DNA of 64,000 nt from Escherichia coli (lineage in GTDB: Bacteria; Pseudomonadota; Gammaproteobacteria; Enterobacterales; Enterobacteriaceae), in NCBI RefSeq assembly GCF_024223415.1, contig NZ_CP100500.1; one strand, given 5' to 3'. The translations under genes were made by a program, and so were the position numbers. The notes below the pieces were generated by a model. It was not told where the DNA came from. It searched no databases and saw only the letters and a program-made list of their open reading frames with translations. Below are positions 48,655 through 49,484 of this stretch, piece by piece; the stretch's first letter is position 1; each line of letters starts with the position of its first letter.

Positions 48655-48757
48655 AACCTCAATGATTTATTTTTATACAAACTATGTTACGTGCTGTAAC
48701 AGGAGCGCGAAGTGTAGGGTCTGAGGTACATCTTAGAAATCAGACCAGTGGCGAGAG

Positions 48758-48774
48758 TATAGGTCGGACCAGCT
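48758..48774 (-). promoter_or_regulatory. FadR operator in the fadL promoter region
   Basis: Minus-strand AGCTGGTCCGACCTATA fits the FadR consensus ANCTGGTCNGACCNGNT; a weaker second site lies at about 48738..48752. Confidence 0.55.
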
Positions 48775-49019
48775 GGAATGTTGCAAGTATGTTTCTATCT
48801 TTTTTCAAATATGATCTAAGAAACGCGATCCAGCTGGCAAAATTTGGAGGTGGCGCACTCATGGATTCGGGTGAATTTTGTTTTAGATCATTTTTAAGTG
48901 TGATTTCGGTCACTTATCCGATTTTGCAGAATTAACAACTGGAGCAGCACTTTCCGGAAGCGTAAAATATCCACAACGTTTATCTGGCACCTTGGGTGCA
49001 CATACAGAGGAAATCAACG

Positions 49020-49304
49020 ATGAGTAAATGTAGTGCTGATGAAACCCCGGTTTGCTGCTGTATGGATGTTGGCACCATTATGGACAACTCCGACTGCACC
49101 GCGTCTTACAGCCGCGTGTTTGCAAACCGCGCAGAAGCAGAACAAACGCTGGCGGCGCTGACTGAGAAAGCCCGTAGCGTGGAATCTGAACCGTGCAAAA
49201 TCTCCCCGACTTTCACTGAAGAGTCTGATGGTGTGCGCCTGGATATCGATTTCACTTTTGCCTGCGAAGCTGAAATGCTGATCTTCCAGCTGGGTCTGCG
49301 TTAA
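49020..49304 (+). CDS. yfcZ: YfcZ-family (UPF0381) small protein
   Basis: ORF 48996..49304; a 94-aa product from internal Met MSKCSADETPVCCCMDVGTIMDNSDCTASYSRVF, divergent from fadL. Confidence 0.8.
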   Translation: MSKCSADETPVCCCMDVGTIMDNSDCTASYSRVFANRAEAEQTLAALTEKARSVESEPCKISPTFTEESDGVRLDIDFTFACEAEMLIFQLGLR

Positions 49305-49318
49305 TTCCTCTCGGGTAC

Positions 49319-49356
49319 GTACGCCCCTGTCAGTTGCTGGCAGGGGCGTTTTCTTT
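49319..49356 (+). terminator. Rho-independent terminator after yfcZ
   Basis: ACGCCCCTG-TCAGTTGCTGG-CAGGGGCGT hairpin followed by a T-rich tract. Confidence 0.65.
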
Positions 49357-49438
49357 TCTCTTCTTCTTTTCTCTCTGTGTCATAGCTCCCACTTTCCCTT
49401 TTCTCCGCTTGGCTAAATGTAAAAAAATGGTTAAGACT

Positions 49439-49457
49439 ATGATCAGGTCAGACCACT
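49439..49457 (+). promoter_or_regulatory. FadR operator upstream of fadI
   Basis: ATCAGGTCAGACCACTT, a one-mismatch match to the FadR consensus, about 30 nt upstream of the fadI start. Confidence 0.55.
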
Positions 49458-49484
49458 TTATTTATTTTTTTACAGGGGAGTGTT

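Follow-up and report, generated by a model that had tools for sequence, protein, structure and literature searches.

Does FadR govern both the uptake gene fadL and the beta-oxidation operon fadIJ from the DNA that flanks yfcZ, and through how many operators? The question arises from the 64,000-nucleotide stretch of Escherichia coli DNA analysed here (hereafter, the window), in which an earlier note, made from the sequence alone, had recognized one FadR-type box upstream of fadL and another upstream of fadI, and had placed both transcription units in the FadR regulon. The reading that we retain, with a probability of about 95%, is that an 830-bp stretch of the window carries three FadR operators, a pair in the promoter of fadL and a single one in that of fadIJ, through which FadR represses both units. 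The initial observation is thereby confirmed, and its interpretation in terms of FadR is supported. FadR control of fadL has reportedly been known since 1993 and that of fadIJ since 2002–2003, and FadR elements at both places already figure in reviews and regulon compilations.

The locus and its equivalence to K-12

The window DNA at the boxes is the K-12 sequence, so that experiments conducted in K-12 are directly applicable to it. Indeed, the fadL–yfcZ spacer reproduces that of K-12 MG1655 base for base, and the yfcZ–fadI spacer shows a single difference (G/A at 49407, 35 bp upstream of the fadI box), window position p corresponding to K-12 v3 position 2509954 - p. At a larger scale, the 1.5 kb around the boxes display up to 100% identity to E. 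coli chromosomes, the locus is found in 5425 of the 5426 complete genomes, and strain SCU-316 is colinear with the whole 64-kb window at 99.9%. The fadR gene itself is absent from the window; K-12 fadR DNA is present in 5422 of the 5426 complete E. coli genomes (at least 95% identity).

The names given to the four genes in the earlier note (fadL, yfcZ, fadI and fadJ) proved right, all of them passing the curated NCBIfam cut-offs with the concurrence of RefSeq (table 1). The annotation also confirmed that yfcZ sits between fadL and fadIJ; it is divergent from the former and upstream of fadI. This order (fadL<-yfcZ->fadIJ) is retained in 76 of the 80 loci obtained when a single genome of each species was scanned with FadI, a set that runs from Escherichia to Serratia, Rahnella and Winslowiella. 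A terminator-like hairpin stands between yfcZ and the fadIJ promoter. Upstream of the annotated fadL start (MSQ...), a further in-frame ATG is found two codons away, at 48654.

Table 1. Features of the fadL–yfcZ–fadIJ locus, in window coordinates.
Feature	Coordinates	Strand	Basis and remarks
fadL	47308..48648	-	ORF list; NCBIfam NF007988 equivalog, 830.7 bits versus cut-off 585; RefSeq annotation
Inverted repeat TGTTAC-N5-GTAACA in the fadL 5' leader	48685..48701	-	Probe match; centred at +57
fadL FadR site 2, CACTGGTCTGATTTCTA	48734..48750	-	3 mismatches; published probe; covers -1..+16
fadL transcription start	48749	-	Deduced from published CRP-site distances
Candidate fadL -10 hexamer TATACT (-12..-7)	48756..48761	-	Sequence and deduced start; columns invariant in 79 species
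fadL FadR site 1, AGCTGGTCCGACCTATA	48758..48774	-	1 mismatch to consensus ANCTGGTCNGACNTNTT; published probe; covers -25..-9
Functional CRP-cAMP site in the fadL/yfcZ divergent region, TGTGATTTCGGTCACT on the + strand	48899..48914		Probe match; centred at -157
yfcZ (DUF406, function unknown)	49020..49304	+	TIGR00743, 156.6 bits versus cut-off 71.45; RefSeq annotation
Intrinsic-terminator-like hairpin and T run after yfcZ	49321..49349	+	Terminator scan: 13-pair stem with 9 GC, then TTTCTTTTCT
Candidate fadIJ core promoter TTGGCT-18-AAGACT	49409..49438	+	Hexamers conserved across species
fadIJ FadR operator ATCAGGTCAGACCACTT, core GGTC-A-GACC	49442..49458	+	2 mismatches on both strands; conservation
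fadI, second beta-oxidation thiolase	49485..50795	+	TIGR02446, 898.8 bits, above cut-off; RefSeq
fadJ, multifunctional enzyme, in operon with fadI	50795..52939	+	TIGR02440, 1344.3 bits, above cut-off; RefSeq

Two operators at the fadL promoter

The box that had been noticed upstream of fadL was located to the exact base, and it is a genuine FadR box. However, it is one of two operators, the second of which (site 2) had been missed; the sites are 7 bp apart by our count and 8 bp apart in Feng & Cronan 2012. Nor does the box belong to a long 5' region, as had been proposed. Indeed, the published CRP sites, with centres at 48906.5 (-157) and 48693 (+57), both yield the same +1 for fadL, and from this start site 1 falls within the core promoter, where it is overlapped by the candidate TATACT -10 hexamer. 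The positions of the two sites relative to this start thus indicate classical promoter occlusion rather than a long-leader site. A simple scan for sigma-70 promoters returned neither that of fadL nor that of fadI, and the sole hit that it gave (48840..48811) was discarded, as it does not fit the published fadL start. Both promoters are non-canonical, so that the hexamers given here are hypotheses.

The functional evidence for fadL is experimental. The FadR site 1 and site 2 probes of Feng & Cronan 2012 match the window exactly, at 48750..48784 and 48723..48757, respectively. The gel shift that the earlier note had proposed as a check is thus already published for both sites: purified FadR binds the two with equal affinity, essentially completely at 50 nM, and 25–50 uM oleoyl-CoA abolishes binding at both (PMC3460868). 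The other proposed check, expression in a fadR mutant with and without oleate, gave a change as well, since deletion of fadR raises fadL-lacZ expression by 2–2.5-fold and oleate induces the same fusion (PMC3460868). A second paper repeated the binding of FadR to fadL and described a W60G variant of FadR that loses binding, with an approximately 2-fold derepression of fadL in the W60G mutant. FadR repression of fadL is weak, about 2-fold (PMC3460868). The element in the window is the same in sequence, spacing and position as OL1/OL2 of K-12 fadL (DiRusso et al. 1993; PMC3460868), the strain being the only difference.

The same region hosts two sequences that have been considered as CRP targets, a functional site centred at -157 and a non-functional one at +57 relative to the fadL start (PMC3460868). 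The probe of the former (fadL-CRP-site1) corresponds exactly to 48885..48929 of the window and is bound by CRP-cAMP (PMC3460868); across species, the site has a mean identity of 90%. The probe of the latter (fadL-CRP-site2) is an exact match to 48664..48719 and contains the TGTTAC-N5-GTAACA repeat, once predicted as a CRP site, to which CRP-cAMP failed to bind (PMC3460868). In the 79 species, the arms of this repeat are invariant and its loop is variable. A known RNA element as the cause of conservation was rejected, as an Rfam scan of 48400..49700 gave just two chance hits below threshold (Spot_42, 20.5 bits; HOTTIP_2, 9.9 bits; gathering score 80).

Promoter alignments (75 distinct fadI sequences and 79 distinct fadL sequences) were used to follow the boxes across species. 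At fadL, the substitutions in site 1 are confined to positions 1, 2 and 9, the mean identity to the reference being 88%, and of these positions the consensus has N at 2 and 9; all eight of the commonest variants (62 of the 79 sequences) preserve CTGGTC-N-GACCTATA. Site 2 retains the left half-site only, and its mean identity reaches 93.6% over the 79 species. Among 284 windows of the fadL region, these sites rank only 73rd (site 1) and 24th (site 2) in conservation, because the whole promoter and leader of fadL are highly conserved. Conservation at fadL therefore supports function without singling out FadR. Among 5425 E. coli genomes, 4781 have exactly the same 62-bp stretch with both operators, and in the variant that was sampled, site 1 is altered at positions 2 and 9 only.

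The box upstream of fadI

The sequence that had been reported upstream of fadI is present on the + strand; its true coordinates are 49442..49458 and not 49439..49457, a shift of 1–3 nt. The box stops 26 bp short of the fadI ATG and thus occupies the interval 27–43 bp upstream of it. Both boxes of the initial reading do fit the FadR consensus, with one mismatch for the fadL box and two for the fadI box, and as the core of the latter is a perfect palindrome, its two mismatches are obtained whichever strand is read. Against the consensus given in review, aaCTGGTCnGACC(T/A)Gtt, with W scored as N, the fadI box obtains 13/15, site 1 12/15 and site 2 10/15.

The regulation of fadIJ is documented at second hand. 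A review reports, with reference to Campbell et al. 2003, that long-chain fatty acids induce fadIJ, that this induction depends on FadR, and that the FadR site in the promoter overlaps a transcription start that is itself only predicted from genome-wide mapping (PMC9329746). The same 2022 review describes FadR as a direct repressor of fadL and fadIJ, acting from sites that overlap their start sites (PMC9329746). The membership of both units in the FadR regulon, as initially claimed, is consequently borne out by published probes and reporters for fadL and, for fadIJ, by the FadR dependence stated in that review. The fadI box is identical in sequence to the corresponding K-12 DNA and precedes the same genes. 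Its position near the fadI start agrees with the start-overlapping FadR site of the K-12 fadIJ (yfcYX) promoter of Campbell 2003, as summarized in the review (PMC9329746), and the 17 bases of the window are probably that very site. A full-text literature search with CAGGTCAGACCAC, taken from the fadI box, gave no match.

Of the 75 species, 63 retain the TTGGCT of the candidate fadIJ core promoter, and 62 have either AAGACT or AAAACT as the second hexamer. The fadIJ start deduced from these hexamers would fall within the FadR box, near 49445, or 2,460,509 on the minus strand of K-12 v3, in agreement with the overlap given in the review. A CRP-like box (TGTGT-N6-TCCCA) is also seen at 49376..49391, near -61 given the candidate fadIJ start; the main text of Li et al. 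2019, which is cited for a CRP site at fadIJ, does not mention fadI.

One qualification concerns the function attributed to the operon. The earlier note had assigned fadIJ to anaerobic beta-oxidation, a historical label that is now disputed (PMC9329746). Indeed, under anaerobic conditions ArcA acts as a repressor of the operon, and good growth on fatty acids is retained by a fadIJ mutant (PMC9329746), two observations that cast doubt on the label.

Other readings of the three boxes

The alternative that survives best, although we consider it unlikely, holds that paralogues of FadR are the main or additional users of the boxes, the lactate regulator LldR at fadL and the pyruvate regulator PdhR at fadI, and that their signals would be integrated by competition for one operator. 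These regulators, GntR proteins of the FadR subfamily, recognize nearly the same consensus as FadR (AAnTGGTCnGACCAnTT and AATTGGTnnnACCAATT), and when scored against the LldR/PdhR consensus the fadL and fadI boxes obtain 9–12/14 and 7–10/14, respectively. A gSELEX peak of LldR lies in the yfcZ/fadL spacer, where the LldR boxes drawn by the authors are the two FadR operators (11/14 and 9/14), and the fadL mRNA responded to lldR dosage in the LldR study. For PdhR, both gSELEX and a gel shift hit the yfcZ/fadI spacer, and the fadI mRNA falls in a pdhR mutant. Within that spacer, the best match to the PdhR consensus is the FadR box of fadI (10/14, a score reached by 20 of the 64,000 window positions), whereas the published PdhR box (49489..49505, inside fadI) scores 7/14, a value equalled or surpassed at approximately 4% of window positions. 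The PdhR signal may thus come from the FadR operator.

However, such a use would add to FadR control and does not exclude it. Moreover, the gSELEX peaks are modest (LldR intensity of 6.6 versus 62.9 at lldP) and derive from in vitro selection with purified protein, and the PdhR shift on the fadI probe is a smear; binding of LldR and PdhR at fadL and fadI is known solely from in vitro selection and gel shifts. The two paralogues also differ from FadR in their effectors, lactate and pyruvate, and in the direction of their reported effect on fad genes, which is activating, whereas that of FadR is repressing. Data on competition between LldR or PdhR and FadR, or on in vivo occupancy, were not found in the literature. 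An extended version, which we hold to be rather doubtful, would make the three FadR boxes a shared docking place for FadR, LldR and PdhR, on which acyl-CoA, lactate and pyruvate compete, the real PdhR site at fadIJ being the FadR operator.

A second alternative is restricted to fadI. It supposes that the box is conserved as part of the core promoter or initial transcribed region, FadR acting on fadIJ indirectly or from elsewhere. Strong conservation does extend upstream of the box through TTGGCT...TGGTTAAGACT, part of which could reflect contacts with RNA polymerase, and neither a FadR gel shift nor a footprint on the fadI box was found in accessible papers. However, the box itself is the top-ranked 17-mer of the 174 windows upstream of fadI (97.7% identity versus a background of 58% over 75 species), and conservation falls sharply after its position 17. 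It is identical in 50 of the 75 species, the substitutions found elsewhere (positions 1, 2, 9, 14 and 17) leaving GGTC/GACC intact; substitutions that spare the palindrome are the pattern to be expected of a dimeric regulator and not of RNA polymerase contacts. In the sampled E. coli variants, the flanks alone differ and the box is unchanged. The placement of a FadR site at the fadIJ promoter in the review (PMC9329746) speaks against this alternative too, as do the FadR sites predicted upstream of fadIJ even in Shewanella and Vibrio; comparative genomics retains fadIJ and fadL as the sole FadR targets common to Enterobacteriales, Vibrionales and Shewanellaceae. We thus judge the core-promoter explanation highly improbable. 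Direct occupancy of the fadI box by FadR is what we infer from its consensus fit, position and conservation, together with the second-hand report.

The bare pattern was compared with 200 dinucleotide-preserving shuffles of the 64-kb window. At no more than one mismatch, a single site was observed for 0.05 expected; at no more than two, four distinct sites for 1.24 expected, a number reached by five of the 200 shuffles; and at no more than three, 19 for 13.4 expected. By rarity, site 1 is therefore significant, the fadI box marginal and site 2 at the level of chance. The two further hits with at most two mismatches, one just 3' of lpxP (20194) and one inside the coding sequence of a YfcO-family fimbrial adhesin (60071), have no link to fatty-acid genes; they were rejected as additional FadR targets, two extras being about what chance would produce. 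A pattern match is thus modest evidence, and the case is carried by position, conservation and experiment or literature. That all three boxes resemble a short degenerate consensus by chance, with no regulatory role, is, despite these expected counts (1.24 and about 13), exceedingly improbable, as chance is excluded for fadL by the published binding, acyl-CoA release and fadR-mutant derepression on identical sequences and is very unlikely for fadI, whose box leads the conservation ranking, all three boxes moreover lying in promoters of fad genes.

Repression by FadR and its significance

Under repression by FadR from three operators, the regulatory cycle runs as follows. In the absence of long-chain fatty acid, the FadR dimer (GntR family, winged helix-turn-helix) occupies its operators: at fadL, site 1, overlapping the -10 hexamer, and site 2, over the start; at fadIJ, it would occupy the single box, probably over the start site. 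RNA polymerase is thereby blocked. Fatty acids entering via FadL and activated by FadD yield long-chain acyl-CoA, to which FadR binds; the liganded protein dissociates from its operators, and fadL and fadIJ are derepressed. Both units are additionally under CRP-cAMP activation and ArcA repression.

Promoter occlusion is a mode of repression that fadBA shares with fadL and fadI. The fadBA operator, which we take to be ATCTGGTACGACCAGAT, is more symmetric in its outer positions than the fadL and fadI boxes. Like them, it is a 17-bp palindrome with TGGT-N-ACCA half-sites, and it is the DNA on which the crystal structure of FadR, a GntR-family dimer, has been solved (PDB 1H9T; PMC9329746). The strength of repression differs, fadBA being repressed 5–10-fold and fadL 2–2.5-fold despite its two sites. 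Among the other fad promoters, that of fadD alone has two FadR sites, and it is likewise modestly repressed; a distance of 68 bp separates its sites, one of which is weaker by more than 10-fold, whereas those of fadL are adjacent and of equal affinity (PMC3460868).

As a discovery, the present observation carries little weight, the regulation being known. The first reading nevertheless shows that a real operator is recognizable from sequence alone, and our analysis adds to it the second fadL operator, a corrected geometry, the caveat on the term 'anaerobic' and a cross-species comparative footprint for the fadI box, for which the comparison of some 75 species constitutes independent support. 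Finally, the functional CRP site has been called atypical because of its position, 157 bp upstream of the start of fadL, but may instead serve yfcZ, the divergent and strictly syntenic neighbour, as a class I site. If this were true, yfcZ would be a co-regulated part of the fatty-acid module.

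Published regulator boxes at fadIJ and yfdY/lpxP

For fadIJ, the published PdhR box (PMC7660256) corresponds to positions 49489..49505 of the window, where it scores 7/14 against the PdhR consensus, i.e. chance level. The top match to this consensus in the spacer is found 40 bp upstream and is the FadR operator itself (49442..49458; 10/14). Judging from these scores, the PdhR site at fadIJ may have been mis-assigned in the publication.

A second entry concerns LldR, another paralogue of the FadR subfamily, for which the box tAtaGGTCgGACCAgcT is given for the yfdY/lpxP spacer (PMC10272880). 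This sequence was not found in the yfdY-lpxP spacer of this window (21134..21485), whose best match is AATTGATTAGGCCATCA. The window contains tAtaGGTCgGACCAgcT a single time, at fadL FadR site 1 (the published operator), of which it is the reverse complement. The attribution of tAtaGGTCgGACCAgcT to yfdY/lpxP is probably a slip in the published LldR table.

Beyond the fad operators, two extra matches to the FadR consensus were detected, which is about equal to the 1.24 expected by chance. These are listed below, together with the other features located in the window.

Features located in the window, with coordinates and context
Feature	Position	Strand	Remarks
FadR-consensus match AACTGCTCTGACTCTTT	20194..20210	-	2 mismatches; 3-19 bp past the lpxP stop codon
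Truncated dsdX and sucrose-utilisation cluster	about 37600..43500 (5296..11128 of locus L001)		between dsdA and the tRNA-Arg gene
Inverted repeat TGTTAC-N5-GTAACA	48685..48701	-	+49..+65 of fadL mRNA
Candidate yfcZ promoter	within 48899..48978		-10 TAAAAT (48963..48968), part of GCGTAAAATA; TGGAGC 17 nt upstream
Sigma-54-type promoter motif TGGCAC-N5-GTGCA	48985..49000	+	GG/GC spacing correct; 20 nt ahead of yfcZ ATG
FadR-consensus match TGCTGGTACGACCTGTT	60071..60087	+	2 mismatches; within StfH/YfcO-family fimbrial adhesin gene

The divergent fadL/yfcZ region

The CRP site assigned to fadL was described as functional and termed atypical owing to its distance of 157 bp from the fadL start (PMC3460868). 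Relative to a putative yfcZ start at about 48975-48978, the same site would be placed approximately 69-71 bp upstream, and may thus serve yfcZ as a class I site. The element GCGTAAAATA of the candidate yfcZ promoter is completely conserved.

An RpoN/NtrC gSELEX peak has been published for the yfcZ/fadL spacer (PMC8743547); it maps to about position 49008 of the window, coinciding with the sigma-54-type motif. Conservation of this motif is only about 60-70% (72 species), and the same stretch can also fold into a small hairpin, GCACC-TTG-GGTGC.

On the fadL side, the entire leader (roughly 100 nt) is very highly conserved, and within its inverted repeat the arms are invariant and the loop variable (79 species). 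CRP does not bind this repeat (PMC3460868), which probably forms a leader hairpin in the fadL mRNA. Both RybB pairing with this mRNA and a published structure for it are mentioned in a review (PMC9329746).

Variation among strains and species

Between dsdA and the tRNA-Arg gene, the sucrose-utilisation cluster comprises a LacI-family regulator, cscA, a kinase and an MFS transporter. In K-12, a prophage at argW presumably stands in place of this dsdX/sucrose cluster, and the window would therefore not be K-12-like in this interval. The yfdF gene, adjoining fadL, is frameshifted according to the annotation of the closest strain, SCU-316.

In one E. coli strain, FDAARGOS_1262, 8 bp are deleted from the T-rich sequence that separates the fadI FadR box from the ribosome-binding site (window positions 49462..49469), and the operator is left intact.

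At the protein level, FadL (47308..48648), which the K-12 annotation also names as receptor for phage T2, shares only 95.5% identity with its counterpart in the GTDB representative of E. coli and about 77% with that of E. albertii (compared loci L002 and L003), whereas the neighbouring FadI reaches 98% and 97%, respectively. These lower identities suggest a fast evolution of FadL, an outer-membrane protein.
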